A stretch of DNA of 64,000 bases from Flavobacteriales bacterium (GCA_002718895.1 PBGD01000019.1:29826-93825), one strand, 5' to 3'. Positions 10,401 to 45,244 are shown, counted from the stretch's first letter. Numbers and translations: made by a program. Notes: generated by a model from the sequence alone, not told the origin.

Positions 10401-10644
10401 CCAGTTAAATGCGAATGAAAAGGCTAATAATCTGACCTCTAAATTAGCTAATAAATACACATCTGAATTAGAATACTATTTTAGTTTTCCTACTAGAAAA
10501 ATTAATGGAGTACAATTAGAGATTTTGAAAAATTTGCAATTTTTTAATCAACTTGTAGAAATAGCTCAAAAAAACAAGCATGAAGACAACAACTTAATGC
10601 AACAAGATTTTGAGAAATATTATAGAAAGTTCCTAGTTTTATAA
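7468..10644 (+). CDS. DUF2723 family polytopic membrane protein (putative glycosyltransferase, PMT/TMEM260-like) with TPR-like C-terminus
   Basis: 1058 aa. N-terminal signature WWDCGEYIATAYKLQVGHPPGAPLF and many TM helices in the first ~640 aa. Confidence 0.8.
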   Translation: MRNFFEKITPWIVFLTALITYSLTMEPTNSWWDCGEYIATAYKLQVGHPPGAPLFLLVANLFSQLAFGNVEKVALMINFMSVVCSAFTILFLFWTIKILSKKIVQNQHITSLSAAVGSLIYTFSDSFWFSAVEGEVYAMSSLFTAVVFWAIIRWEQEVGKNQKADKWLIFIAYLIGLSIGVHMLSLLVIPAITLIYYFKKYDFSIKGFIVANFASVVLLGLIYNIIIPQFVNLAGKSEIFFVNNLSFPFNSGTIFFFLTTFITIISLLMWTKKNNLQNANTSILGFTFLLIGYMSFFTLIIRSNANTPIDENSPEDAVSLLSYLNREQYGYSPLLFGQYFNTEVENYGDGNPVYVPKYIVQEIKQIDSKVNKKQIGIFYQEELSNFKDTIVVKDKIKEVVSYEFKDHYAISDDRKSSVPEYKQNQSGFFPRMWSRDQRHIEAYKDWAKINNLNKQPNFIQNMRFFFNYQINHMYIRYFMWNFAGKQNDKQGHGELNNGNWISGINLIDNLRLGPQTNIPDHIKNNAGRNKYYFLPLILGFLGLVFHIKNNPKDTWSVFLLFIFTGLAIVIELNQTPFQPRERDYAYVGSFYAFSIWAGMGVLSIYNTLKERGLNNKKLLMTICSITLFVPLLMANQGWDDHDRSNRFTAREFAKNYLKSCEPNAILFTMGDNDTFPLWYVQEVEGYRTDVRIVNLSLLNTDWYIDQMKRDAYDGKAVPFSLNKNKYKQGTRDVAIYLEKGEASQKRLELTDFNKWIKSDRKETKIDFGKDYDYYYTKKIRIPVNKENIKHYKFQNDSILDYLDIELKTSQLEKKDIMILDLLENNDWERPIYFAITIGSSGRQFLYLEKYFRLDGMVYKLMPIDYSNSSEEIGGINTDILYPILIDDEPCSEQLRIPKNSTNSCNYAWGNLNSNIYLDETNIRMTMNFRNNFSRLAQELIKENKFKKAENVLDYCMKTMPPNKVPLNYFIHPIIESYYQLNANEKANNLTSKLANKYTSELEYYFSFPTRKINGVQLEILKNLQFFNQLVEIAQKNKHEDNNLMQQDFEKYYRKFLVL

Positions 10645-19028: not shown

Positions 19029-21512
19029 ATGATTATATTTACTGCTAATTATAAACGATTTTTAATGAAAAAGCTTGTTATTTTTATTTTATTATTTGTA
19101 CATCACCTAACATTCTCTCAAACCACAATTTTATCAGGAAAGATTATTGATTCAAAAGACAAATCCCCTCTCATAGGAGTTAATATCTCCGTCAATTCTA
19201 GCTATGGAACAGCTAGTGATTTCAATGGTGAATATACAATAGAACTGAATAACGGTGAGAACGCTATAAATTTTCAATATATAGGTTATGAAACACAGAA
19301 GCTCATTATTGATGCAGAATCTGGGCAAAACTACATAAAAAACATATCACTTAACAGTACTTCCACAGAAATGGATTTGGTTGTAGTTTCTGCAGGTAAA
19401 TTTGAACAAAAACTTGAGGAGGTTACCGTTTCAATGGATGTAATAAAACCTTCACTAATTGAAAACAAGAACTCAACTGATCTAGAAGTATTAATGAATC
19501 AAAGTCCAGGGGTCCAGGTCGTAGATGGCCAAGCTAATATTAGGGGTGGAAGCGGTTGGAGTTACAATACTGGTAGTAGAGTGTTGGTTATGATTGATGA
19601 CATGCCATTACTGAGCGGAGATAGAGGAACAGTAAACTGGAACATGATTCCAATGGAAAACATCTCTCAAATTGAAGTTATAAAAGGTGCTTCTTCTGTA
19701 CTATTTGGATCTTCAGCCATGAATGGAGTTATCAATGTTCGAACAGCTTATCCTAAGGGAGAACCCGAAACTAAAGTCGCATTATTTTCAGGAATTTATG
19801 ATCGTCCATCTAGAGATGGCTTACACTGGTGGGGAGACGACACAAGAAGCTTTCAAGGAATGTCTTTCAGTTATGCTCAACAAAAAAATAACACTGGTAT
19901 TGTTTTCGGGGGAAATATTTATTCTAATGACGGCTATCGTGGCGGATATGTAACTAATACTGAATCAAGTAAGTTTCCAGGTGCATTGCCAGTTAGTGAG
20001 AAGTGGGCAAGATTCAATTTCAATAGTCATCATAATTCAAAAAAAATATCTGGCTTATCATATGGATTAAACGCAAATGTTACTTATTTACACCAATTTC
20101 AATCACTGATCTTTCAAAATGATGAAATAGGTTACACGCCTATCGGTGTACCAGACGGATCAAAGCCAGCATTATTTACTCAATTTATGCTCAATGTGGA
20201 TCCTTTTATAAAATTCCGTAATACAAATAATAATACTCTGCACTCATATAAATCTAGATTCTATCGAGATAACCATGCTCCATTTTTATCTGAAAGAGCA
20301 TTTTCCGATGTTGTTTTTCAAGAATATCAATTCCAAAAAACAAGACCAGAATATAAATTTAAAAAACCAAATCGCAAACAAGTTTTCACCATCGGTCTTG
20401 CTTCAAATTATGTTAAAGGAGATTATAAAGATGTATATGGTCATGATATGATATACAATGGTCAACTACAAGAATATACTGCTATAGATGCACCAGAAAT
20501 AAAGCAATTATTTAATTATAGCTTATATGGACAATATGATCTTAAATTTAATAAATTGAATGTATCATTAGGAACACGACTTGAGCATTTTAATTCCTAT
20601 AAAGACAATTATTTAGTTCCTGTAATTAGATCTGGTATAAATTATCAATTACTTAAAGGTACTTTTTTAAGGAGTTCGTTTGGACAGGGTTATAGATATC
20701 CAACAATAATGGAAATGTTTGTTGAAACAGACTATGACCCTATGTATATATATCCCAATCCTGACTTAGATCCAGAATCAGGTTGGAGTGCTGAACTTGG
20801 TATTAAACAGTTGATAAAAATTGGAGAATGGAAAGGCATGATTGATTTAGCTGGCTTTATTATGCACTATGATGATATGATTGAATTTAGTTTTGGCAAT
20901 TGGGGTGCTCCAACAGACGGTTTAGTAGGATTTGGTTTTAAATGTATAAATATAGGTGCAACTGAAATTAGTGGTTTTGAATTTTCTTTAATGGGAGAGG
21001 GTAAAATTGGAATTGTAGATGTTACATTATTAGGTAGTTATACAAAAGTTAATCCAATTATTTTAGACCCTGAGGCTTCTTATGGAAAATTTTATGTTTT
21101 GGGTATCGAAAATGATATTAACTATATTAACTCAAGCTATGACCAAAGTGGAGTGTTAAAATATAGGCATGAAAACATTTTAAAGTTTGATGTAAACTTA
21201 GATTATAAACGTATCATGACGGGATTAAGCTTCAGATATAATAGTCTTATGAGAAACATGGATTTAGTATTTGGATCTGACCAATTTAATGGCGGATCAG
21301 GACCTGGCGCAGTAGATATTGGTATTTTAGATTCTAGAGAAAGAATGTTAAATGGAGATAAAATTATTGACTTTAGAATTGGTTATCACATTAATGATGA
21401 ACTTACGTTTTCTTTGATAGTTGATAATCTTTTAAATAGGGAATATCAACATAGGCCTGCTGATTTAGGACCACCAAGAGCGTTTACAATTAAATTAAAC
21501 GCTAAAATATAA
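19029..21512 (+). CDS. TonB-dependent receptor (CarboxypepD_reg-like domain + plug + barrel), substrate unknown
   Basis: 827 aa. The likely true start is M13 (19065), giving signal peptide MKKLVIFILLFVHHLTFSQ. Contains GKIIDSKDKSPLIGVNISV and the plug motif ISQIEVIKGASSVLFGSSAMNGVINVRT. Confidence 0.88.
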   Translation: MIIFTANYKRFLMKKLVIFILLFVHHLTFSQTTILSGKIIDSKDKSPLIGVNISVNSSYGTASDFNGEYTIELNNGENAINFQYIGYETQKLIIDAESGQNYIKNISLNSTSTEMDLVVVSAGKFEQKLEEVTVSMDVIKPSLIENKNSTDLEVLMNQSPGVQVVDGQANIRGGSGWSYNTGSRVLVMIDDMPLLSGDRGTVNWNMIPMENISQIEVIKGASSVLFGSSAMNGVINVRTAYPKGEPETKVALFSGIYDRPSRDGLHWWGDDTRSFQGMSFSYAQQKNNTGIVFGGNIYSNDGYRGGYVTNTESSKFPGALPVSEKWARFNFNSHHNSKKISGLSYGLNANVTYLHQFQSLIFQNDEIGYTPIGVPDGSKPALFTQFMLNVDPFIKFRNTNNNTLHSYKSRFYRDNHAPFLSERAFSDVVFQEYQFQKTRPEYKFKKPNRKQVFTIGLASNYVKGDYKDVYGHDMIYNGQLQEYTAIDAPEIKQLFNYSLYGQYDLKFNKLNVSLGTRLEHFNSYKDNYLVPVIRSGINYQLLKGTFLRSSFGQGYRYPTIMEMFVETDYDPMYIYPNPDLDPESGWSAELGIKQLIKIGEWKGMIDLAGFIMHYDDMIEFSFGNWGAPTDGLVGFGFKCINIGATEISGFEFSLMGEGKIGIVDVTLLGSYTKVNPIILDPEASYGKFYVLGIENDINYINSSYDQSGVLKYRHENILKFDVNLDYKRIMTGLSFRYNSLMRNMDLVFGSDQFNGGSGPGAVDIGILDSRERMLNGDKIIDFRIGYHINDELTFSLIVDNLLNREYQHRPADLGPPRAFTIKLNAKI

Positions 21513-24676: not shown

Positions 24677-25459
24677 ATGCTTACTGACTCACATACACAT
24701 CTGTATCTTAAAAATTTTGAAAATGACATAGATATTGTAATACAAGAAGCAAAAAAAGAAGGGATTAACAGATTTATTTTACCAAATATTGATGAAACCA
24801 CAATTAATAAGTTAATAGATTTACATAAGAGATATAAAAATATCACTTATCCACTAATAGGCCTACACCCATGTAGTGTGAATAAAAACTACCCAAAACA
24901 GATAGAAAAATTATTCCAAAAAGTTAAAAATACTCAATTTATAGGCATTGGTGAAATTGGTATTGATTTACACTGGGATAAAACTTTGATAGAGGAGCAA
25001 AAAAGTGCATTTCGTACGCAAATACAATGGGCAAAAAAACTAGAAATACCTATAGTTATTCATTGCAGAAAAGCTTTTAATGAAATATATACAATTTTAA
25101 AGGAAGAAAATGTTAAAGATGTCGGTGGAATATTTCATTGTTTTTCTGGTACAATTAAAGAAGCTGAAAAAATTATTGACTTAGGATTCTTGTTAGGTAT
25201 TGGAGGTGTAATAACGTTTAAAAATTCGAATTTATCCAATATAATCAAAGATATTCCAATTGAAAAAATAGTTTTAGAGACGGATGCTCCATACTTAGCT
25301 CCTCACCCAATGCGAGGTCATAGAAATGAACCCAAATACCTCTCAATTATTGCTAAACAAATAGCCTCAATAAAGAGTATCGATATTCATAAAATAGCTG
25401 AAATCACATCTAAAAATATAGACAATCTATTTTTTAAGAAGAATCAAAATATAATTTAA
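24677..25459 (+). CDS. TatD family metal-dependent hydrolase (DNase-like)
   Basis: 260 aa. Starts MLTDSHTHLY, with GEIGIDLHW and VLETDAPYL later. Confidence 0.9.
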   Translation: MLTDSHTHLYLKNFENDIDIVIQEAKKEGINRFILPNIDETTINKLIDLHKRYKNITYPLIGLHPCSVNKNYPKQIEKLFQKVKNTQFIGIGEIGIDLHWDKTLIEEQKSAFRTQIQWAKKLEIPIVIHCRKAFNEIYTILKEENVKDVGGIFHCFSGTIKEAEKIIDLGFLLGIGGVITFKNSNLSNIIKDIPIEKIVLETDAPYLAPHPMRGHRNEPKYLSIIAKQIASIKSIDIHKIAEITSKNIDNLFFKKNQNII

Positions 25460-25692: not shown

Positions 25693-26517
25693 ATGACCAC
25701 TAGATTCTTAATTTTTATATCATTATTTCTATTAAATATTGATAAAACATTTGCTCAAGATGAAGTACTTGAGGATTCTTTAAATACCGAAATAACAGAC
25801 ACTGCCAAATATGATTCAGAAACTAATGTTGAAACTACTGAAACTAAAGAAGATGTAATTATAGAAAATGATATTATTTCTAATGAAAACCCTTCATTCC
25901 ACCAAGTACTAAAAACAAAATTTATTGAAGGTGGAGCAGGTTTTATGGGTATTGTTTTATTAACACTTATCTTAGGCTTAGCATTATGTATAGAAAGAAT
26001 TTTATATTTACACGCAGCTGGCTCAACTAACCATGAAAAATTATTGATAGAAATAGAAGATGCAATTAATAATGGAGGTATAGATAAAGCAAAAGAAATT
26101 TGCAAAAACACACCTGGTCCAATTGCTAGTATTTTTTATCAAGGTTTAGAAAGATCTAATAAAGGAGTTGATGTAGTTGAAAAGTCAATTGTTGCGTATG
26201 GATCAGTTCAAATGGGCTTATTGGAAAGAGGAACGACCTGGATATCCTTATTCATAGCTCTAGCACCAATGCTTGGTTTCATGGGTACGGTCATAGGTAT
26301 GATTGGAGCTTTTGATGCAATTGAAGCAGCTGGTGATATTTCACCTTCACTAGTAGCAGGTGGTATCAAAGTAGCACTTCTTACAACAGTATTTGGTCTA
26401 ATAGTTGCTATCATTCTTCAAGTATTTTATAATTATATTGTTTCAAAAATAGACGATATAGTAAACAAAATGGAAGATGCATCTATCGCATTAGTAGATA
26501 TTTTATCAAGTAAATAA
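25693..26517 (+). CDS. exbB: MotA/TolQ/ExbB proton-channel protein with signal peptide and acidic N-terminal extension
   Basis: 274 aa. C-terminal channel region GMIGAFDAIEAAGDISPSLVAGGIKVALLTTVFGLIVAI. Confidence 0.88.
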   Translation: MTTRFLIFISLFLLNIDKTFAQDEVLEDSLNTEITDTAKYDSETNVETTETKEDVIIENDIISNENPSFHQVLKTKFIEGGAGFMGIVLLTLILGLALCIERILYLHAAGSTNHEKLLIEIEDAINNGGIDKAKEICKNTPGPIASIFYQGLERSNKGVDVVEKSIVAYGSVQMGLLERGTTWISLFIALAPMLGFMGTVIGMIGAFDAIEAAGDISPSLVAGGIKVALLTTVFGLIVAIILQVFYNYIVSKIDDIVNKMEDASIALVDILSSK

Positions 26518-26527
26518 AAGAAATAGC

Positions 26528-26869
26528 ATGACTGATTTAGGACTTATTCTAGTATATATAATGATTGGCATTGCAGTGATAATCTGCATAGCTTCTCCTA
26601 TTATTCAAATAAAAAACCAACCTGGGAAAATGAAAGAGATGATTCTACCTATTGCTCTTTTAGTTTTACTATTTGTTTTTTCTATTGTAATATCATCAAA
26701 TGAAGTTCTTCCCTCTTATACTAGTACAGATGGGAATTTAATTTCCTCATTGACATCGAAAATAGTGGGAGGTAGTTTAATTACGTTTTACTTATTAGCT
26801 ATAATTGCAATTGGAACCGTGATGTATAGTGAATTTCTAAAGAAATTATTTAAAAATGGCAAGAAGTAA
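26528..26869 (+). CDS. Small three-TM membrane protein of unknown function, embedded between exbB and exbD
   Basis: 113 aa with three hydrophobic helices. It starts 10 nt after exbB and overlaps exbD by 14 nt. I recognise no motif. Confidence 0.55.
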   Translation: MTDLGLILVYIMIGIAVIICIASPIIQIKNQPGKMKEMILPIALLVLLFVFSIVISSNEVLPSYTSTDGNLISSLTSKIVGGSLITFYLLAIIAIGTVMYSEFLKKLFKNGKK

Positions 26870-27392
26870 AAGATCTACACCAGAAATAAATGCTGGATCA
26901 ATGGCAGATATTGCATTTCTGTTATTAATTTTTTTCTTAGTAACTACTACAATGGATGTTGATACTGGAATTGCACGAAAATTACCTGTACTTGATGATA
27001 CACAAGAGCCTGAAGATATGCAAGGGAACGCACGAAATATATATGAAGTATATGTAAATAAAAGAGATAAATTACTTGTAGAAGACTTAGAGATTGAAAT
27101 TGATGATTTAAGAGAAGGGGCCAAATCATTCATTAATAATAGAGGAGTTAACCCAGAGTCATCAGATAGTCCTGATAAAGCAATTATTTCTTTAATAAAT
27201 AGTCGTGGTACATCTTATGAAATGTATATTTCAGTTCAAAATGAACTAACTGCAGCATACAATGAGTTAAGAAACGAGGAATCAATTAAAAAATATAGTG
27301 TAAAGTATTCTGAATTACCAAAATCTAAACAAAAAGAAATAAGAAAAATATATCCCATGAAGATATCTGAAGCTCCTCCAGGTGAATTCTAA
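26856..27392 (+). CDS. exbD: Biopolymer transport protein ExbD/TolR (paralogue 1)
   Basis: 178 aa. Contains EINAGSMADIAFLLLIFFLVTT. Confidence 0.85.
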   Translation: MARSKRSTPEINAGSMADIAFLLLIFFLVTTTMDVDTGIARKLPVLDDTQEPEDMQGNARNIYEVYVNKRDKLLVEDLEIEIDDLREGAKSFINNRGVNPESSDSPDKAIISLINSRGTSYEMYISVQNELTAAYNELRNEESIKKYSVKYSELPKSKQKEIRKIYPMKISEAPPGEF

Positions 27393-27873
27393 TTATAGAA
27401 ATATGTCAAAGTTTAAAAAAAATAATAAAGGTGGAACACCACCAATTTCAACAGCATCACTGCCAGATATTGTCTTCATGTTATTATTCTTCTTTATGGT
27501 AACAACAGTTATGCGTGAAACAGAAATGTTGGTAGAAAATCAGTTGCCGCAAGCAACAGAAGTTAAAAAACTTGAACGAAAATCCCTTGTTTCATACATT
27601 TATGTTGGAGCTCCCCGCGGTAATAATCGCAAAACAAAATATGGCACAAAATCTAAAATTCAACTTAATGATGCTTATGCAAAAGTGGCTGATATACAAT
27701 CCTTTATTATTGCGGAGAGAGAAAGTAGAGCAGAAGAAGAGATTCCACTATTAACCACGTCCATTAAAGCTGATATTGATGTGAAAATGGGAATTGTTTC
27801 TGACATAAAACAAGAGCTGCGAAAAGCACAAGCCTATAAAATAAATTACTCTACCAGAAAAGAACAAGACTAA
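27382..27873 (+). CDS. exbD: Biopolymer transport protein ExbD/TolR (paralogue 2)
   Basis: 163 aa. Contains ISTASLPDIVFMLLFFFMVTT. An alternative start at M8 (27403) would remove the overlap. Confidence 0.85.
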   Translation: MNSNYRNMSKFKKNNKGGTPPISTASLPDIVFMLLFFFMVTTVMRETEMLVENQLPQATEVKKLERKSLVSYIYVGAPRGNNRKTKYGTKSKIQLNDAYAKVADIQSFIIAERESRAEEEIPLLTTSIKADIDVKMGIVSDIKQELRKAQAYKINYSTRKEQD

Positions 27874-36964: not shown

Positions 36965-37696
36965 TTATTTATACGCGTTTGTAAAAAGACTCTTCAACTT
37001 CATCTTTAAAACTCCTAAAATAGCCTCTTTAATTATACTTTTATTTAACTTGGATACTCCCCTTTCCCTATCTTTAAACACAATTGGTAATTCAAAAATA
37101 TTAAACCCCTTTTTCCATGTACGAAATTTCATTTCAATTTGAAAAGCATAGCCAACAAATTCAATGTCATCTAAGGAGATACTTTCTATCACTTTTCTTG
37201 TGTATCCATTAAAACCTGCAGTGGGGTCCTTAATCGTCATGCATGTTATTATCCTAACATAATAGGAAGCAAAATATGACAATAAAATTCTACTAATTGG
37301 CCAATTGACTACATTAATGCCAGATATATATCTAGATCCAATGCATAAGTCTACACTGTTTGCACATAAAGTATTATGCAATCTCAATAAATCTTTTGGA
37401 TCATGTGAAAAATCACAATCAATTTGGAAAAAATAATTATAGTTTTTTTTTAGCCCCCATTTAAATCCAGAAATATAAGCTTTACCCAACCCTTTTTTGC
37501 CATTTCTTTTTAATAAAAATAACCTGCCTGCATATCGGTTTTGTAGTCTTGCTACTTCTTCGGATGTTCCATCTGGAGATGAATCATCAACAACTAATAC
37601 ATGAAGATCCTTTGAAACTAAAAAAACCTCTTTTAACATAAGAGAAATGTTTAAGATCTCATTATAAGTTGGAATAATAACTAGACTAGACTTCAT
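36965..37696 (-). CDS. Family 2 glycosyltransferase, polyprenol-phosphate mannosyltransferase-like
   Basis: 243 aa. Contains VIIPTYNE and VVDDSSPDGT. Confidence 0.8.
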   Translation of the reverse strand: MKSSLVIIPTYNEILNISLMLKEVFLVSKDLHVLVVDDSSPDGTSEEVARLQNRYAGRLFLLKRNGKKGLGKAYISGFKWGLKKNYNYFFQIDCDFSHDPKDLLRLHNTLCANSVDLCIGSRYISGINVVNWPISRILLSYFASYYVRIITCMTIKDPTAGFNGYTRKVIESISLDDIEFVGYAFQIEMKFRTWKKGFNIFELPIVFKDRERGVSKLNKSIIKEAILGVLKMKLKSLFTNAYK

Positions 37697-37723
37697 AGCA
37701 TGAATTTATCTCAATTTCATTTG

Positions 37724-37731
37724 CAAAAATA
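37724..37731 (-). promoter_or_regulatory. Candidate -7 box TATTTTTG (minus strand) for the GT2-pyrC operon
   Basis: Plus strand caaaaata, about 27 nt upstream of the ATG at 37694-37696. I found no -33 TTG. Confidence 0.3.
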
Positions 37732-37835
37732 ATTAATAAAAGATAGATGGGAAAAGTGTTTAGAATATATAGTAATTTTAAAAAATAAAAAGCTGTATTT
37801 TTTTTTAATTTAGTCATAAATTAACTTAAATTTCA

Positions 37836-37843
37836 GATATTTG
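37836..37843 (+). promoter_or_regulatory. Weak candidate -7 box GATATTTG for the LTD/receptor/nuclease operon
   Basis: A 7/8 match to TAnnTTTG, 39 nt upstream of the ATG at 37883. No -33 element seen. Confidence 0.2.
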
Positions 37844-37882
37844 CACAACTACTTAAAATTAAATAACTAAATCTATTTATAC

Positions 37883-38980
37883 ATGAAAAATCTTTTTACT
37901 ATTCTAATTATCCTCTTTACTTCTCACTTTGTACAAGCACAATGTAGTGATATTTTTATATCAGAATATGTTGAGGGCTGGGGAAATAATAAAGCTCTAG
38001 AATTATATAATCCAACTGCTAATAGTATTGACTTATCTGCATATACAATCGCAAGGTATTCTAATGGTTCATTCCAAGAAAGTGCCCCTCAACAACTTTC
38101 AGGCATAATTCTACCTTACTCAACTTATGTAATAGGTTTAGATAAAAGAGACCCGAATGGATCAGGTTTTGATGCGCCAGTTTGGGACGGATATTACACA
38201 TTTACTGACACTCTGTGTCCTGAAACATTAGGGCAGGAAATAACTATTTATAATGAAGATAATGATCTTCAAAGCAAAGTAGATTTTTGGGCAAATGGAA
38301 CGTATTACAGCGGAACAGATCCAGCAGAACAAGCACTCTATCCGCAAACAATGTTTTTTAATGGGAATGATGCAATAGTTCTGTCGCTAGTTGGACTAGG
38401 TGCTCCAGTTGATATTTTTGGTGAAGTTGGTGTAGATCCAGGTGCCGCATGGACTGATGCCATAGGAAATTATTGGACTAAAGATCATACTTTAGTAAGA
38501 AAACCCTCAACTGATTTAGGTGTAACTATGAATCCAAGTCCTTTTGATCCAACAATTAGTTGGGATTCACTGCCCGCTAACACATTTGCTAATTTAGGTT
38601 GGCATAACTGTATTTGTGATCCCGATTTTAATGGAGCCACAGAAAATGTGTATGGATGTATGAATACTTCAGCGAATAATTATAATTCTAACGCTACAAT
38701 TGATGATAATTCATGCGAATATGATAATTGTAGTACTTCAATTGAAGAGCAAAAAAATAAATTTGCCTTATATAATCTTTCTCAAGGTAAAATTCAAATT
38801 TCTAATAATTTGATTATTAAGCATATTAGTGTGTACAACGAGATTGGTAAACTAGTCTTATCCAAAAAAGTCAGTAATCTGAAACACACAGAATTTAGTG
38901 TTGGAAATAAAAGGGGTATTTTCTTTGTGTCTATTGAAGATACTGATGGACTAAAAACTAAATCTATTCTTGTAAAATAA
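37883..38980 (+). CDS. Secreted non-catalytic lamin-tail-domain (LTD)-like protein with a Cys-containing linker module and a T9SS C-terminal sorting domain
   Basis: 365 aa. Signal peptide ends in HFVQA/QC. LTD-like pattern IFISEYVEGWGNNKALELYNPTANSIDLSAY...NGNDAIVL...PVDIFGEVG. Module GCMNTSANNYNSNATIDDNSCEYDNC at 38654-38731. Last ~80 aa (IKHISVYNEIGKLVL...GIFFVSIEDTDGLKTKSILVK) resemble a Por/T9SS type-A CTD. Confidence 0.75.
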   Translation: MKNLFTILIILFTSHFVQAQCSDIFISEYVEGWGNNKALELYNPTANSIDLSAYTIARYSNGSFQESAPQQLSGIILPYSTYVIGLDKRDPNGSGFDAPVWDGYYTFTDTLCPETLGQEITIYNEDNDLQSKVDFWANGTYYSGTDPAEQALYPQTMFFNGNDAIVLSLVGLGAPVDIFGEVGVDPGAAWTDAIGNYWTKDHTLVRKPSTDLGVTMNPSPFDPTISWDSLPANTFANLGWHNCICDPDFNGATENVYGCMNTSANNYNSNATIDDNSCEYDNCSTSIEEQKNKFALYNLSQGKIQISNNLIIKHISVYNEIGKLVLSKKVSNLKHTEFSVGNKRGIFFVSIEDTDGLKTKSILVK

Positions 38981-41784
38981 TGTCAAGAATTTGGGTCTAT
39001 TATTTTTGTTTATTTACATCTTCCTTGTTTATCGGTCAAAATTCAATTAAGGGAATAGTTGTAGACGAAAGAACAAATGAAACATTAATTGGCGCTAATA
39101 TTTTAATTAATGACAAAATAGATACAAACAATAAATTTGGCACAGCAACTGATATTAATGGTTATTTTGAATTCAAAGAATTAAGTGGAAAATTTTATGA
39201 CTTAAGTGTTTCATATATTGGATATGGCCCAAAAATTATTTCGATTTCATTTGAAAAAAATCATCTCATTGATACAACTTTTAAACTTTCTCCCGATGTT
39301 GTCTTAGATGCAGTGGTCGTTAGTAGTGATCAAGCGCAATTTAGAAAGACACCTGTATCTCTTAGCAATGTAAAATTAGAAAAAATAGAAAGAGAATTAG
39401 GCGGTCAAGAAATTCCAATGTTATTAAACTCAACTCCTGGTGTCTATGCAACTCAACAAGGCGGTGGAGATGGAGACGTAAGGATAAATATTAGAGGTTT
39501 TAATCAAAGAAATGTAGCAGTTATGATTGATGGTGTTCCAATGAACGATATGGAAAATGGATGGGTTTATTGGTCTAACTGGTTTGGTCTTGATGCACTC
39601 ACAAGAACAATTCAAGTTCAACGTGGCCTAGGGGCATCTAAACTAGCACTACCCTCTGTTGGAGGAACTATAAATATTTTAACAAAGGGTATAGATAGTC
39701 AAGAGGGAGGAAGTATAAAGACTGAGTGGGGTTCAGGAAACTATGTCAGAACTACACTAGCATATACAACCCCCAACCTAAATATTGGAAAGTTTAATTT
39801 TGCTACTTCTTTTAAACAATCTAATGGAATTATTGAGCAAACTGGATCCCATGGAATGTTTTACTATGCAAAATGGCAGAAACAATTTAATAATCATTTA
39901 TTTGCTCTTTCAATCTTTGGTGCTCCGCAAGAACATGATCAAAGAAAATACCAAACAGGTATAGCAGTTTATGACAAACAATTTGCTTCTGATTTAGGGG
40001 TTGATACCGCATCATTAGAAGGTGGATATGGATTAAACTATAATCCAAACTGGGGTACATATAATGATTATAAAGTTGTTTTTGAGAATGGAACAGCTAT
40101 TGACACCATTTTTGGTGTTAACAGAAAAATAAATAAGCATAAAAACTTTTACCATAAACCGAATCTTAATTTTCAGCATCTTTGGAAGATAAACGAAAAA
40201 AATACTTTAACTAATATTATATATCATTCCAAAGGACAAGGTGGGGGAACAAATTATTATGGTCAGGCAATAAATTATACTAATAATAATCAAATTGATT
40301 TTCAAGAAATATATGACTTAAATTCCGGAAATAGAGTGCATCCATGGTTTGGAGACTTATCTATAAACACAACATATAGTGATAGTTTGCATAAATCAAG
40401 TGGTATATTATATGCTAGTAGAAACAATCACTATTGGACCGGACTCCTTTCTACCTTCACTCATGTGACAAACAAAAATGTAGATATTTCAACAGGTTTA
40501 GATATTCGCACATACAAAGGTGAACATTATGCAGAAGTATATGACTTACTAGGTGGTGACTATTATCTAGGCACAACTGGCATCGGCTCTAAAAATGCAA
40601 TTGGAGAAAATTCAATAAAATTAATGCTTGAAGAAGGTGATAAAATTTATTATCATAACGATGGACTAGTTAGATGGGCGGGTGTTTTTCAACAAATGGA
40701 ATATAATTATGGTAATATATCAGCATTTATAAATATTACTGGATCTAAATCAAGCTACAGAAGGATTGATTATTTTCGAAAAAAAGACATAGTAATTTCC
40801 GACACAATATTAGTAGAAGCAGTAGGAATAAATGACACTGTTAATTATAACGGGTTTGAATACACTTCAAGCTCTCCAGAAGCTAGATATACTAGAACAA
40901 ATTGGGAGAATTTTTTAGGCTACACAGCTAAATGTGGAGCAAATTGGAATATAGATGAATATAATAATATTTTTGTAAATACTGGTCTTTTATCTAAAGC
41001 ACCAAGGTTTTCAAATGTCTTTGATTATGATAATCAAACTTACCAAAACACCAAAAATGAAATAGTAAAAGCAGTAGAATTTGGCTACGGACATAAATCA
41101 ACAAAATTTGCTTTAAATCTTAATGCATATTATACTATTTGGGAAAACAAGCCTCAAACTGGAACTACACAAGGTGCTGGAGGTGAAACATTAATTTATA
41201 ATATTAATGGAATAAATGCACTTCACAAAGGTGTTGAGTTAGATTTTGCTGTTAAATTAACTAAAGGTTTAAAATATGAATTTCTTTGTTCTGTTGGAGA
41301 TTGGCAGTGGACATCTGGAGATACTGTGAATTTCTACTTAAATCAAGAACTTTATTCAAGTGATTATTTTGATGCCAAAGGGGTATATGTAGGAGACTCC
41401 CCCCAAAAGCAAATTGGATCAAGTATAAGCTATAATTTTAAGTCTAAAGCTAATACATATTCTTACATAACATTAAAAGGCATGTACTTTTCTAAATTCT
41501 TTTCAGATTATGATCCATTTTATTTAGATGAAAATAAAAAAGTTTGGAAAATACCGCCTTACCATTTATTTAGCTTACATTTAGGAAGATCTATTTATCG
41601 AGAAAAACTTGAATATAAATTTAAATTAAATGTCTTAAACTTATTTAACACTGTTTACATCAGTGACGCTGAAAACAATTCTACTTATGTTGAAGATTCA
41701 CCACTAAATTCTGACGCTGCATCTGCTTCAATATTTTTTGGTTTAGGGAGAAAAATAACAGCCTCTATTCAAATAAATTTTTAA
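38980..41784 (+). CDS. TonB-dependent receptor (CarboxypepD_reg-like + plug + 22-strand-size barrel), no adjacent SusD-like gene
   Basis: 934 aa. Contains IKGIVVDERTNETLIGANILIND and the plug DVRINIRGFNQRNVAVMIDGVPMND...IQVQRGLGASKLALPSVGGTINILTK, and ends in ...IQINF. Its ATG shares 1 nt with the upstream TAA. Confidence 0.88.
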   Translation: MSRIWVYYFCLFTSSLFIGQNSIKGIVVDERTNETLIGANILINDKIDTNNKFGTATDINGYFEFKELSGKFYDLSVSYIGYGPKIISISFEKNHLIDTTFKLSPDVVLDAVVVSSDQAQFRKTPVSLSNVKLEKIERELGGQEIPMLLNSTPGVYATQQGGGDGDVRINIRGFNQRNVAVMIDGVPMNDMENGWVYWSNWFGLDALTRTIQVQRGLGASKLALPSVGGTINILTKGIDSQEGGSIKTEWGSGNYVRTTLAYTTPNLNIGKFNFATSFKQSNGIIEQTGSHGMFYYAKWQKQFNNHLFALSIFGAPQEHDQRKYQTGIAVYDKQFASDLGVDTASLEGGYGLNYNPNWGTYNDYKVVFENGTAIDTIFGVNRKINKHKNFYHKPNLNFQHLWKINEKNTLTNIIYHSKGQGGGTNYYGQAINYTNNNQIDFQEIYDLNSGNRVHPWFGDLSINTTYSDSLHKSSGILYASRNNHYWTGLLSTFTHVTNKNVDISTGLDIRTYKGEHYAEVYDLLGGDYYLGTTGIGSKNAIGENSIKLMLEEGDKIYYHNDGLVRWAGVFQQMEYNYGNISAFINITGSKSSYRRIDYFRKKDIVISDTILVEAVGINDTVNYNGFEYTSSSPEARYTRTNWENFLGYTAKCGANWNIDEYNNIFVNTGLLSKAPRFSNVFDYDNQTYQNTKNEIVKAVEFGYGHKSTKFALNLNAYYTIWENKPQTGTTQGAGGETLIYNINGINALHKGVELDFAVKLTKGLKYEFLCSVGDWQWTSGDTVNFYLNQELYSSDYFDAKGVYVGDSPQKQIGSSISYNFKSKANTYSYITLKGMYFSKFFSDYDPFYLDENKKVWKIPPYHLFSLHLGRSIYREKLEYKFKLNVLNLFNTVYISDAENNSTYVEDSPLNSDAASASIFFGLGRKITASIQINF

Positions 41785-41787
41785 ACT

Positions 41788-44007
41788 ATGAAAAAATTAA
41801 ACATTATATTAATACTATTAATATCAAACTTTACATTTGGCCAAACAACAAGTTATTATACTAATACATTTGGTTTAACTGGAGAAAATTTAAAAGCAAC
41901 GCTGCATGATATAATAAAAGATCACACTTCTTACTCTTATACAACAACAAAAAGTATTTTAAGAGATGCAGATGAAGATCCTAATAATCCAGCAAATATC
42001 ATACTAGTATACAGTGGTAATTCCATTGATAAATTTGATTTTGCTTCTAATTTTGAACCAGATTTTTGGAACCGAGAACATGTATGGCCAAAATCTCATG
42101 GTGACTTTGATGCAGGAGATCCATTTGAAGTGCCACTTTACACTGATGCCCATAATTTAAAACCGGTAGATCATAGTATGAATACATTAAGAGGTGAAAA
42201 AGACTTCGATAATGGTGGAACATCAGTGTACAATGGTTCCATTATGACTGAATGTTTTTCTACTAGCTCAACCTTTGAACCTAGAGATGCAGTTAAGGGA
42301 GACATTGCTAGAATAATTCTTTATATGGACGTGAGATATGAGGGCGGAAATAACGAACCAAACTTAGTACCCTTAGATGGTCTTACTACATATCCTAATC
42401 CCCAAATAGGGGTATTATCTACTTTACTTGAATGGCACGAACAAGATCCCCCAGATGCGTTTGAAAAAAGAAGAAATGATGTTATTTATGAGTGGCAAGG
42501 AAACCGAAATCCATTTATTGATTATCCAGAATTTGCGGATATTATTTATGGTAATACTAGCCCTAATTCTGTGGAAATCTCAATACAAGATATTCCTGAA
42601 ACAATTAATGGCGGCGAGGGTTTCGGTGTCTCAGTAAATGTAAACAGCTTAGCAAATTGTGGCCCTATAGAATCAGTAGTTATTAATTATGGGAACAGTT
42701 GGTTTGATTTAAATAATAATATAAGTATGGATTATGAGGATACTTGGATTGCCTCTATTACTGAACAACCTTATAATACTATGTTTTGCTATGAAATAAT
42801 TGCAACTGATTGTGAAGGTAATACAAATACACTGTATGGATCTGAAGTTATACCACCGTTTCCTTTTGAGGGTGTTATAACATCTATATCAGAAATTCAG
42901 GGGCAACAAGAATTCTCACCTTTTGAGGGTCAGACAGTTAATACAACAGGAATTGTAACAGGAGCATTTGCAAATAGTTTTTATATACAAGATGGTTCTG
43001 AACCCTGGTCTGGAATATATATCTACAGTGGAGGTGCGTTGCCATCAATGGGAGATAGTGTGATAGTAACAGGTGAAATAAGTGAATTCTGCTGGAACGG
43101 AAGCCCTTGTGATTGTAGTTCTTGTGGAGGTGCAGGGGTAACAGAGTTTTATCAACCAGAAGATATTTATATAATTAGCAGTAATAACCCTCTACCTGAA
43201 CCAATATTAGTCCCAAGTGGAGAGGCATTGTCTGAACAATACGAAGGTGTGTTAGTTAGAATGGAAAATGTAGAATGTACCTCAATGCCCGGGGGTTTTG
43301 GCGTATGGCAAGTAGATGATGGATCTGGAACATGTGGTATTCACAATACCCCTGATGGTTATGAGCATAATCCAACTATAGGCGATGTCTATAATATAAC
43401 TGGAATTGTTACATCTACATTTAATGAATGGAAAGTTGATTTAAGAATGGAGTCAGATGTAGAGAGTGGAGATGATGTAACTGCCCCATTTATTTTATCT
43501 AGTAATTGTTATCAAGTGGGGGAAAACTACTATGTATATCTATATTTTAATGAACCTATCGATCAGTCATTTCTAGATGTAAACAACTTTTTAATTACAA
43601 ATGCTCAAATTACAAATGTGGTTGCTGATTTTTTTGATCCCACAAAAGCTACACTAACATTAAGTAATGTGGTCTCTAACTCTTTAGGATTAATCATATT
43701 TCAAATGGGAGATTTAAACCAAAATATTGGAACTAACATAACCTATGCACTAAATTGTAATTTTAATTTTGACTTTAGTTTAAATGAAGAGACTGTTAAC
43801 TTGAAGGTTTTTCCAAACCCTAATAGTGGTGAATTTAGTATAGAAATCGACAGCCAAGATCAAACTGCCTATATATATGATTTAAAAGGTCAAGCTATTT
43901 TAACCCGAAATCTTAAAAAAGGAATTAATAATTTTAGTGTAAAAAAACCAGGTTTTTATTTTCTACAAATAAATAATTTTGAATATATACCACTTTTAGT
44001 TAAGTAA
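41788..44007 (+). CDS. Secreted multidomain Endonuclease I family nuclease with ExeM/NucH-like beta modules, an Ig-like domain and a T9SS C-terminal sorting domain
   Basis: 739 aa with signal peptide MKKLNIILILLISNFTFGQ. Endonuclease I signatures WNREHVWPKSHG (His98 codon at 42079-42081), TDAHNLKPVDHSMNTLRG, GDIARIILYM and GNRNPFIDYPE. Then SISEIQG...FYIQDGSEPWSGIYIY...GDSVIVTGEISEF. CTD LKVFPNPNSGEFSIEI...FYFLQINNFEYIPLLVK. Confidence 0.88.
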   Translation: MKKLNIILILLISNFTFGQTTSYYTNTFGLTGENLKATLHDIIKDHTSYSYTTTKSILRDADEDPNNPANIILVYSGNSIDKFDFASNFEPDFWNREHVWPKSHGDFDAGDPFEVPLYTDAHNLKPVDHSMNTLRGEKDFDNGGTSVYNGSIMTECFSTSSTFEPRDAVKGDIARIILYMDVRYEGGNNEPNLVPLDGLTTYPNPQIGVLSTLLEWHEQDPPDAFEKRRNDVIYEWQGNRNPFIDYPEFADIIYGNTSPNSVEISIQDIPETINGGEGFGVSVNVNSLANCGPIESVVINYGNSWFDLNNNISMDYEDTWIASITEQPYNTMFCYEIIATDCEGNTNTLYGSEVIPPFPFEGVITSISEIQGQQEFSPFEGQTVNTTGIVTGAFANSFYIQDGSEPWSGIYIYSGGALPSMGDSVIVTGEISEFCWNGSPCDCSSCGGAGVTEFYQPEDIYIISSNNPLPEPILVPSGEALSEQYEGVLVRMENVECTSMPGGFGVWQVDDGSGTCGIHNTPDGYEHNPTIGDVYNITGIVTSTFNEWKVDLRMESDVESGDDVTAPFILSSNCYQVGENYYVYLYFNEPIDQSFLDVNNFLITNAQITNVVADFFDPTKATLTLSNVVSNSLGLIIFQMGDLNQNIGTNITYALNCNFNFDFSLNEETVNLKVFPNPNSGEFSIEIDSQDQTAYIYDLKGQAILTRNLKKGINNFSVKKPGFYFLQINNFEYIPLLVK

Positions 44008-45244
44008 CAGAAAATTGCATCAAAATACCACATAACCATGCTGCATATGTGCCTAAAGCATAGCCTAATACAGCTAACAAAACACCTACTGGTGCTAAAG
44101 ATGGATGAAATGCAGAAGCCACTACTGGAGCTGATGCAGCGCCACCTACATTCGCTTGGCTGCCAACTGCAACAAAAAAGAATGGGGCCTTGATTATTTT
44201 AGCAACTATAAGTAGAAGTGAAACATGAACTAGCATCCAGATTGCACCTAACACAAATACACCAGGAGAATCAAGAATAGATAATGCATTCATTTTCATT
44301 CCTATTGTAGCAACTAAAATATATAAGAATATTGATCCTATGGTTGAGGCACCAACACCTTCATATTTTTTAAACTTAGTAAAAGATAAAATTAATCCGC
44401 CTGTAGTTGCTAATACAATGAGCCAAAAAAACTTTGAAGTTAAGCTAAACTTACTTAATGATGGAAAATTATTTTGAATATACGGAGCAATATAATCAGA
44501 ACATGCATGAGAAAATCCAGTAATACCAAATGCAATAGCTAAGATAACCATATAGTCTGTAAAAGAAGCAATCCTTTGATTCTCTTGTTTAAATTTTATT
44601 AACTTATTTTTTAATTTTTCAATAGCAGATGAGTCTGCTTTTAACCAAGCATCCATTTTTTTATTAATTCCTGCTCCATATAATAAAAAACCCATCCATA
44701 TATTTGCTACAACAACATCAACAGTAATCATAGAACTAAAAATATCATCATTCACATTAAACATTTCTTTCATAGCTGCTTGATTTGCACCTCCTCCGAT
44801 CCAGCTCCCTGCTACAGTTGTTAAACCACGCCATAAATCATCTGTTGAAATAGGTATTAAATTAGGAGCTAACTTTGAAACAATTATTAAACTTAGTGGC
44901 CCACCAATCAGAATTCCAAAAGTTCCAGTTAGAAACATAATAATAGCCTTGGGTCCAAGATTAATGATTTTCTGTAAATCTATACTTAATGTTAATAAAA
45001 CTAAACTAGCAGGCAATAAGTACCTAGAAGCAATGTAATATAAATTTGAAGCTTCCCCAGAAATAATGCCTAGACTATTAAAAATTGAGGGGATGAAATA
45101 ACAAAGCAATAAAGCAGGTACATATTTAAAAAAGGACTTTAAATAATAATTTTCACTTTTTTCCATTACAAAAATTAATGCAAGCATCGTTATAAGTAAT
45201 CCTAGAACAGTGGCATCATTGCTAAAAAGTGTTAAGTAATTCAT
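44000..45244 (-). CDS. DUF819-like polytopic membrane protein (putative transporter)
   Basis: 414 aa with about 12 hydrophobic segments. The family assignment is from memory of the overall pattern; no catalytic motif. Confidence 0.55.
   Translation of the reverse strand: MNYLTLFSNDATVLGLLITMLALIFVMEKSENYYLKSFFKYVPALLLCYFIPSIFNSLGIISGEASNLYYIASRYLLPASLVLLTLSIDLQKIINLGPKAIIMFLTGTFGILIGGPLSLIIVSKLAPNLIPISTDDLWRGLTTVAGSWIGGGANQAAMKEMFNVNDDIFSSMITVDVVVANIWMGFLLYGAGINKKMDAWLKADSSAIEKLKNKLIKFKQENQRIASFTDYMVILAIAFGITGFSHACSDYIAPYIQNNFPSLSKFSLTSKFFWLIVLATTGGLILSFTKFKKYEGVGASTIGSIFLYILVATIGMKMNALSILDSPGVFVLGAIWMLVHVSLLLIVAKIIKAPFFFVAVGSQANVGGAASAPVVASAFHPSLAPVGVLLAVLGYALGTYAAWLCGILMQFSVT

Follow-up and report, generated by a model that had tools for sequence, protein, structure and literature searches.

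The three genes and their products

The window analysed here is a 64,000-nt stretch of DNA (GCA_002718895.1, PBGD01000019.1:29826-93825) from the genome of an uncultured marine (Tara Oceans) Flavobacteriales bacterium with a GC content of ~30%. It contains three consecutive genes on the plus strand, termed g1, g2 and g3, that form a candidate system for the uptake of extracellular nucleic acid. Their predicted products are a 365-aa secreted protein with a lamin tail domain (LTD), a 934-aa TonB-dependent outer-membrane transporter and a 739-aa multidomain nuclease. In the table of open reading frames (ORFs), g1 occupies positions 37883-38980, g2 positions 38980-41784 and g3 positions 41788-44007. 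The first two genes overlap by 1 nt, with g2 sharing the stop of g1 at 38980, and a gap of 3 nt separates g2 from g3. This layout is identical to the one given in an earlier note that was made from the sequence alone. A terminator scan found no plus-strand terminator-like site within the trio.

The product of g1 (37883-38980, plus strand) consists of a signal peptide, a single LTD, a Cys-rich linker and a diverged tail of the kind used in type IX secretion system (T9SS) sorting. It carries no catalytic motif. The LTD (PF00932; 49 bits against a cut-off of 34, E 7.7e-13) spans residues ~20-215 and includes an insertion of ~70 aa. The C-terminal sorting domain lies at residues ~289-355 (the segment at 38747-38980 encodes residues 289-365) and falls below the curated cut-offs in this copy, with a TIGR04183 score of 21.0 against 23 and a PF18962 E-value of 0.037. 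Of the LTD and the T9SS tail that the earlier note had assigned to g1, the first is therefore confirmed by Pfam, and the second passes only by family evidence and by a locally iterated tail profile, which matches residues 289-355 at 2e-12. Among the proteins encoded at the g1 position in related loci (described below), the LTD is found in 71/71 and Por_Secre_tail in 70/71 at E <= 0.001 (Pfam), and the protein from the window is the sole one of these 71 LTD partners to fail the Pfam tail model. Judged by its family, the tail of g1 is a real one that has diverged in this lineage, and sorting by the T9SS is predicted.

The mature part of the g1 product is strongly acidic (pI ~4, net charge -29). 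The protein weakly matches the N-terminus of ExeM (NCBIfam), and a sequence search of the PDB with g1 returned no relatives. An exhaustive search of a representative library with g1 gave 427 matches at E <= 1e-30, but because giant multi-LTD proteins dominate among them, this number is no measure of the size of the g1 family. The same library contains giant proteins of 2000-3000 aa (P0361-P0379) with 8-11 LTD units of the g1 type each, so that this LTD subtype also has a place in repetitive surface proteins of very large size.

The second gene, g2 (38980-41784, plus strand), encodes a predicted transporter with a signal peptide, a CarbopepD_reg_2 domain (residues 23-114, 4e-17), a Plug domain (residues 122-220, 8e-14) and a barrel. 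A TonB-box-like motif, LDAVVVSS, is present. The Pfam model of the beta-barrel matches several orthologues of g2 and fails on the copy in the window. None of the SusC/RagA models of NCBIfam match g2, and a PDB sequence search with it also found no relatives. The earlier description of g2 as a TonB-dependent receptor of 934 aa without a SusD-like partner holds, as no SusD-like gene occurs within 10 kb on either side of the trio. Orthologues at 38-77% identity are spread over the Bacteroidota.

The third gene is the most complex of the three. Its N-terminal part (41788-42534, plus strand) encodes a signal peptide and an Endonuclease I domain of the Vvn/EndA/Dns type, which matches PF04231 at residues 31-248 with 144 bits against a cut-off of 25 (8e-42). 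A weak match to Vvn (PDB 1OUP) places E97-H98 and N132 at Vvn active-site positions; we take these to be the catalytic His and the metal-binding Asn. Residues R96, E97, H98 and N132 are invariant in 41/41 distinct Endonuclease I domains from the related loci, in agreement with the earlier observation that the catalytic signatures are intact. The domain is followed by an Ig-like beta-sandwich spacer (residues ~250-361; 42535-42870), a tandem-OB, HIN-like module of the DUF5689 family (residues 362-562; 42871-43473) and a second Ig-like domain with a T9SS type A sorting domain (residues ~563-739; 43474-44007). The sorting domain itself, at residues 674-730, passes both models (PF18962, 29.1 bits against 27; TIGR04183, 29.7 against 23), so that by its tail profile g3 is T9SS type A cargo, as the earlier note had also proposed.

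An AlphaFold2 model of residues 250-665 of g3 has a mean pLDDT of 91.3 and is all-beta. Residues 250-361 (strands at positions 13-106 of the model) and 563-665 appear in it as Ig-like spacer domains. Submitted whole to Foldseek, this 416-residue model returned only generic tandem Ig/FN3 matches with a TM-score of ~0.2, and the OB module was then modelled again by itself (pLDDT 92.3, pTM 0.89). The best PDB matches of the module alone are the HIN domains of IFI16, MNDA (with double-stranded DNA), p204 and p202, followed by SSB and RPA.

The family assignment of the OB module draws on several profile comparisons. In the window copy DUF5689 scores below threshold (Pfam, E = 0.028), and in the proteins at the g3 position of related loci it is found in 35/60 at E <= 0.001. 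Iterated jackhmmer searches starting from the g3 segment and from a Pfam-certified DUF5689 protein reached the same 67 proteins, and hhalign comparison of the OB-segment and DUF5689 profiles gave 100% probability (E 1e-53 and 6.5e-49). The earlier note had seen ExeM/NucH-like beta modules here. A weak ExeM/NucH match does exist at residues 387-493 (NCBIfam), but the module is better identified as the DUF5689 tandem-OB fold. The ExeM/NucH models score far below their cut-offs (NF033680, 60 bits against 1300; NF033681, 21 against 300), and an EEP domain is absent. Fusions that join homologues of the OB module to nucleases (Endonuclease I, PLD and EEP) or to LTDs occur in Bacteroidota and in records of metagenome-assembled genomes labelled Chlorobi, Fermentibacteria/Aegiribacteria and Cloacimonetes.

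Conservation and genomic context

Related loci were collected by a scan with an alignment of the transporter, taking one genome per GTDB species. At least 591 relatives were confirmed, and the best 80, which are 38-67% identical to g2, were kept; the counts below refer to these 80. Their labels include Flavobacteriales, Bacteroidales, Marinilabiliales, Saprospiraceae, Chitinophaga, Arcticibacter, Crocinitomicaceae and Lentimicrobiaceae. An LTD gene lies directly upstream of the transporter gene and on the same strand in 74/77 loci with upstream sequence. Sequence downstream is available for 71 loci. The next gene on the same strand encodes Endonuclease I in 32 of them and an OB module with a PLD-type enzyme in 29; 3 complete ORFs and 4 truncated ones encode just the OB module. 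Pfam analysis of the downstream set finds the T9SS tail in 57/60 proteins, DUF5689 in 35/60, Endonuclease_1 in 30/60 and PLDc_2 in 27/60. The intergenic gaps are short, with medians of 54 bp upstream and 26 bp downstream of the transporter gene.

The association also holds in the opposite direction. When metagenome contigs were scanned with the LTD protein as the starting point, a transporter gene came next in 63/66 loci that had room for one; third in line is a gene for Endonuclease I in 20, for a PLD-type enzyme in 12 and for the OB module only in 2. Contigs with g2 orthologues at 66%, 50%, 47% and 44% identity all carry the LTD gene, the transporter gene and a gene for a T9SS-tailed protein, and the order of the trio is kept in contigs whose downstream flank differs. 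Its recurrence in 74/77 independent species loci with sequence upstream puts the arrangement far outside what chance would give. These observations support reading the trio as one conserved functional unit, and answer the question of co-occurrence across related genomes that the earlier note had raised. In distant Flavobacteriales the trio is further syntenic with genes for a family-2 glycosyltransferase (GT2), a dihydroorotase-like protein and TyrRS. It is therefore a core locus and not the accessory-looking island it had been taken for.

The enzyme encoded at the third position is much less constant than its partners. Mapped onto a neighbour-joining tree of 69 transporters, the type of enzyme changes at least 11 times (shuffled labels give a mean of 25 and a minimum of 18), with Endonuclease I repeatedly replaced by PLD-type enzymes. 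The system thus consists of a constant set (LTD protein, transporter and OB module) and an exchangeable cassette, the phosphodiesterase domain.

Additional genes and domains accompany the trio in some species. A 5'-nucleotidase_C-like gene encoding 234-239 aa directly follows the nuclease gene on the same strand in 10/80 loci (L047, L050, L052, L057, L067, L072, L073, L077, L082 and L085), several of which are labelled Crocinitomicaceae. It is possibly a fourth component, for nucleotide breakdown. Two loci (L053:2566-5880 and L062:3638-6376) encode DUF5017+DUF5689+T9SS proteins with the domain pair of RA0C_RS04920 from Riemerella, and in another (L013:10774-13866) the nuclease has 1030 aa and an extra LTD, in the order Endonuclease I, OB, LTD, tail. 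One relative has a NamZ/DUF1343 gene five genes downstream of the module (L011:18252-19409). Another DUF1343 protein, RA0C_RS09020, is essential for transformation in Riemerella (PMC8459023), but the presence of the L011 gene is probably a coincidence.

In the window, the trio is preceded by a divergent, AT-rich intergenic region of 186 bp (37697-37882), which is presumably the home of its promoter. A TAnnTTTG-like element, ATATTTGC, can be read ~38 nt ahead of the ATG of g1. Scans for sigma-70-type promoters and for terminators both stayed at background level. The region had been described as the second-longest spacer in the window; by a rough gene call it is about the fourth or fifth longest. 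In searches of this DNA there were zero matches to Rfam families and no meaningful repeats or mobile-element ends, and the GC content gives no indication of a horizontally acquired island.

On the other side of the spacer, and adjoining the trio, is a GT2 gene on the minus strand (36965-37696). A GT2 gene also lies near the trio in 23/80 other species (among L012-L091). In 14 of these loci, mostly labelled Flavobacteriales, it lies on the opposite strand, two or three genes upstream; in 8, several of them labelled Bacteroidales, it is downstream on the same strand; and in 1 it is five genes downstream on the opposite strand. This proximity could be plain ancestral synteny or could indicate a link to the anchoring of T9SS cargo. 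At the 3' end of the trio, a convergent gene for a DUF819 membrane protein (44000-45244, minus strand) overlaps the stop region of g3 by 8 nt (44000-44007). This gene adjoins the trio in close relatives only (L001-L007) and is outside the module.

The trio is not the sole transport-related locus in the window. According to the domain scan, a second TonB-dependent receptor of 827 aa (CarboxypepD_reg, Plug and barrel; 19029-21512), a TatD-family gene (24677-25459) and an ExbB/ExbD/ExbD energy-transduction cluster (25693-27873), all on the plus strand, lie 10-19 kb upstream. An otherwise housekeeping stretch also contains a gene for a TMEM260-like protein of 1058 aa (7468-10644, plus strand; Pfam TMEM260_N, DUF8416 and TMEM260_2).

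Relation to known systems

Two described systems have parts that resemble those of the trio. The products of the ddbABCDEF locus of Bacteroides thetaiotaomicron are secreted nucleases, a TonB-dependent transporter (DdbC) and a DUF5689 protein (DdbD). In its organisation the locus is described as similar to a polysaccharide-utilisation locus, and it is needed for the depletion of exogenous DNA (PMC12478041, PNAS 2025). DdbD is the proposed lid of DdbC, and its resemblance to HIN domains has been reported (PMC12478041). The same locus was also described in 2022 as BT3560-3563 (PMC8851478). In Riemerella anatipestifer, RA0C_RS04915 (a CarbopepD_reg transporter) and RA0C_RS04920 (a DUF5689+DUF5017 protein) are each essential for natural transformation (PMC8459023, 2021). 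DdbC and DdbD are related to this pair, an evolutionary link noted in PMC12478041. Ddb-type DNA loci and Riemerella competence genes related to the trio are thus already known, and the earlier statement that a unit of this kind was uncharacterised is outdated. Within the open literature covered by the search, mentions of DUF5689 are confined to the Ddb work (paper and preprint) and the Riemerella paper. Lamin tail domains come up neither in the Ddb paper nor in the Riemerella one, and a paper on the 'lids' of Bacteroides transporters makes no mention of DUF5689, DNA or LTD.

Chromosomal contigs filed as plasmids in PLSDB, two of them PGAP-annotated (B. finegoldii and Aureibacter), served as proxies for Ddb-like loci; the identities given for g2 are to these proxy transporters and not to DdbC (WP_008762511.1) or RA0C_RS04915 themselves. 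The B. finegoldii proxy encodes a TonB-dependent receptor, a DUF5689 protein and an EEP nuclease, which is the layout of BT3560-3562. The g2 protein is 23.6% identical to the Aureibacter transporter (902 columns, E 2e-37) and 21.4% identical to that of B. finegoldii (870 columns, E 3e-17), with alignments covering 84-87% of its length. The other receptor in the window, used as a control, is 27.6% identical to g2 but over the N-terminal quarter only (E 7e-15). A transporter of Phocaeicola massiliensis, followed by a DUF5017 lipoprotein, aligns over the full length with 33.8% identity (E 4e-135). It is 24% identical to the B. finegoldii transporter, in line with the ~25% reported between Bt and Pv transporter types (PMC12478041), and is likely of the Pv type. 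The identities of g2 to the proxies likewise agree with that value.

The other parts of the trio give a similar picture. The g3 OB profile matches the DUF5689 proteins of B. finegoldii (5.5e-12) and Aureibacter (1e-29 and 9e-15), and the nuclease domain of g3 is 35% identical to a stand-alone Aureibacter endonuclease. No LTD was found in the B. finegoldii or Aureibacter loci, and no DUF5689 was detectable in the downstream proteins of P. massiliensis and Persicobacter. By homology, g2 would be a member of the DdbC-like superfamily within a separate, LTD-associated clade, and residues ~362-562 of g3 are a DUF5689-family tandem-OB module, the domain of DdbD. This module is presumed to be the counterpart of DdbD and RA0C_RS04920, that is, the part that binds DNA or docks onto the transporter.

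The Ddb locus and the trio have in common a CarbopepD_reg TonB-dependent transporter beside a DUF5689 module and secreted nucleases, and the logic of a polysaccharide-utilisation locus without SusD. They differ in several respects. The DUF5689 protein of the Ddb locus is a separate lipoprotein, whereas in the trio this module is fused to the nuclease. Anchoring is by lipoprotein signal peptides in the Ddb locus and would be by T9SS sorting domains in the trio; no lipobox is seen by eye in g1 and g3, while the B. finegoldii and Aureibacter partners have lipobox-like N-termini. The LTD protein, absent from these Ddb-like loci, is the obligate upstream partner in the trio. The nuclease is mainly of the EEP type in the Ddb locus and Endonuclease I or PLD in the trio and its relatives, and the hosts are a gut anaerobe and a free-living marine flavobacterium.

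The Riemerella pair is likewise from Flavobacteriales and consists of a CarbopepD_reg-type transporter followed by a DUF5689 surface protein; a gene for a nuclease lies beside them. The pair has been proposed to let DNA cross the outer membrane with no need for type IV pili (PMC8459023). However, its demonstrated function is transformation, the DUF5689+DUF5017 partner has no fused nuclease, and no LTD gene was reported. ExeM/NucH proteins of Shewanella and Aeromonas (PMC6085458) contain an LTD, a YhcR-like OB fold and a nuclease domain, but they combine these in one polypeptide with an EEP nuclease and have no dedicated transporter; in the trio the LTD is separate, the nuclease is Endonuclease I and the importer gene lies between them. 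Known Endonuclease I enzymes (Vvn, EndA and Dns) share with g3 the PF04231 domain and the R-E-H and N metal-ligand positions. These are single-domain periplasmic or secreted proteins of ~230 aa, in contrast to the 739-aa multidomain acidic T9SS cargo with a tandem-OB module encoded by g3. SusC/SusD loci likewise group the genes for an enzyme and a binding protein of the cell surface with one for a TonB-dependent importer, but the trio lacks a SusD-like gene, g2 has no SusC/RagA match, and nucleases take the place of glycoside hydrolases. The analogy with polysaccharide utilisation drawn in the earlier note is supported. Its further suggestion that the LTD protein sits where SusD/E/F would is unproven, and the DdbD-like lid module lies within g3, not in the LTD protein.

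Based on these comparisons, with transporter and OB homology to Ddb-like loci in which the LTD is absent, the trio is best filed as a third type of DdbC-anchored DNA locus, LTD-associated, apparently T9SS-displayed and undescribed. What is new is the phylum-wide T9SS/LTD form, its universal LTD partner, the fusion of lid and nuclease, and the recurrent swapping of the nuclease.

Proposed function and alternatives

The features described above suggest that the trio is a T9SS-displayed, TonB-dependent system that captures, cuts and imports extracellular nucleic acid, a reading to which we assign a probability of about 0.62. The functional interpretation in the earlier note was therefore largely right, with partial support. 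The target is almost certainly extracellular nucleic acid, as that note had proposed, judging from the synteny in both search directions, the replacement of Endonuclease I by PLD-type enzymes and the 5'-nucleotidase-like gene in 10 loci. The same target is indicated by the swapping of unrelated phosphodiesterase folds, the invariant catalytic residues and the HIN/SSB-like tandem-OB fold.

In the proposed mechanism, g1 and g3 would be exported by Sec, pass through the T9SS and be anchored at the surface via their C-terminal sorting domains. The tandem-OB/DUF5689 module of g3 may hold DNA, dock onto g2 or do both, as proposed for DdbD, and the Endonuclease I domain would cut DNA, and probably RNA, to oligonucleotides at the mouth of the channel. 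By homology to DdbC, g2 would move the fragments into the periplasm when energised by TonB/ExbBD, and its energy supply is plausible because ExbB/ExbD genes share the window. The role of g1 is a guess, although its pairing with g2 is seen throughout the family. Co-translated with g2, it may be an obligate third surface subunit that aids capture of the polymer or assembly of the complex; binding of DNA by the LTD protein is pure conjecture. Periplasmic nucleotidases and phosphatases could then free nucleosides and phosphate, as the 5'-nucleotidase-like gene of the 10 related loci suggests.

Uptake for nutrition is the most likely role, and the main pay-off to a marine flavobacterium is probably the scavenging of phosphorus, nitrogen and nucleotides. 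This role is favoured by the 5'-nucleotidase-like neighbours and by the Endonuclease I+LTD nucleases of Flavobacterium johnsoniae, which are induced ~17- to 25-fold by phosphate depletion (PMC8115612). No tie to a transporter was found for the F. johnsoniae genes Fjoh_4721/4723.

Several points weigh against this interpretation. Import of oligonucleotides by DdbC-type transporters is itself an inference in the literature, and DNA is a poor sole source of carbon, nitrogen or phosphorus for B. thetaiotaomicron (PMC12478041). The g2 protein is just 21-24% identical to the Bt-like DdbC-type proxies. Against HIN domains the OB module reaches modest Foldseek TM-scores (0.35-0.39), owing to a difference in how its two OB halves are oriented. 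HIN domains bind DNA via basic surfaces, and the g3 module differs from them in this respect: with pI values of 4.0-4.5 and net charges of -18 to -29, LTD, OB and nuclease modules alike are strongly acidic, and among the residues of the OB module no conserved basic one was seen. Unlike in HIN domains, DNA binding by such acidic modules would need metal bridging or be local. Finally, PLD-type enzymes could act on phospholipids or other phosphodiesters.

The same components could instead serve the outer-membrane step of DNA uptake in natural transformation, with the surface proteins catching double-stranded DNA, the nuclease trimming it or making ends and g2 passing long DNA on to ComEC, DprA and RecA. 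Both RA0C_RS04915 and RA0C_RS04920 being essential in Riemerella (PMC8459023) speaks for such a role, and so does the presence of the same DUF5689 module in g3, and of RS04920-like DUF5017+DUF5689+T9SS proteins in L053 and L062, as does the evolutionary link drawn in the Ddb paper (PMC12478041). Conservation over the sampled Bacteroidota, including a small-genome marine lineage, would also suit a basic DNA-uptake machine. Even so, transformation, though a serious alternative, seems unlikely to be what the trio is for. A non-specific Endonuclease I fused to a DNA-binding module would destroy incoming DNA, and in Vibrio the homologue Dns suppresses transformation. The 5'-nucleotidase-like neighbours indicate catabolism, and the window contains no com genes. 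In addition, g2 shares no more than 21-24% identity with the Bt-like/Aureibacter clade, to which Riemerella would belong by shared PGAP names and by the homology described in PMC12478041, and the best matches to RS04915 in marine Flavobacteriaceae are at 32-36% (Huang et al., PMC8459023), which suggests that a separate, closer homologue exists.

A different substrate would also fit some of the observations: RNA only, a teichoic-acid-like polymer or phospholipids, or the DNA of the cell's own biofilm matrix, which the trio would then mainly remodel, as reported for BT3563, with the transporter importing something else. Endonuclease I enzymes also cut RNA, and the third gene encodes a two-HKD PLD-type enzyme, cardiolipin-synthase-like in its source annotation, in 29/71 loci. 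The strong acidity of all modules speaks against simple binding of DNA, and BT3563 acts in bile-dependent biofilm formation (PMC8851478). However, Endonuclease I is a dedicated nuclease family that alternates with PLD while the tandem OB is kept, EEP nucleases are fused to the same OB module elsewhere, and matrix remodelling hardly explains an obligate pairing with a TonB-dependent importer, so that a substrate or task of this kind appears improbable. Three unrelated surface genes might, in turn, simply be held together by ancestral synteny: over Flavobacteriales, synteny extends to the GT2, dihydroorotase-like and TyrRS genes on the flanks, so that gene order is in part a product of genome history. 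But differing flanks (L008, L011 and loci labelled Bacteroidales, Saprospiraceae and Chitinophaga) leave the trio intact, the LTD/transporter pair is recovered from either search direction, only functional analogues take the place of the third gene, and the gaps are short. Adjacency devoid of functional meaning is accordingly very improbable indeed, and chance adjacency is excluded by the bidirectional synteny and the enzyme replacement.

Beyond the capture, cutting and import of nucleic acid by this one trio, a broader idea can be offered tentatively, as speculation with some chance of being correct. The LTD protein, the DdbC-like transporter and the DUF5689 module may together be an ancestral, phylum-wide machine for DNA import at the outer membrane that replaces the type IV pilus/ComEA route used by other bacteria and feeds both nutrition and gene transfer. 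The LTD protein would then be a hitherto overlooked core subunit, and the nuclease a cassette swapped among three enzyme superfamilies.

The sea's dissolved DNA constitutes a large store of phosphorus and nitrogen in organic form, and Flavobacteriia play a major part in polymer consumption in these waters. The trio links an abundant uncultured marine flavobacterium to DNA loci recently characterised in gut Bacteroides, and at least 74 species genomes, drawn from several lineages of Bacteroidota, carry its T9SS/LTD form. It offers a testable three-component model for the TonB-dependent import of a polyanionic polymer and a first candidate function for stand-alone bacterial LTD proteins. With its invariant LTD, transporter and OB parts and its exchangeable nuclease, the trio may also provide a gene marker for DNA-foraging potential in metagenomes.

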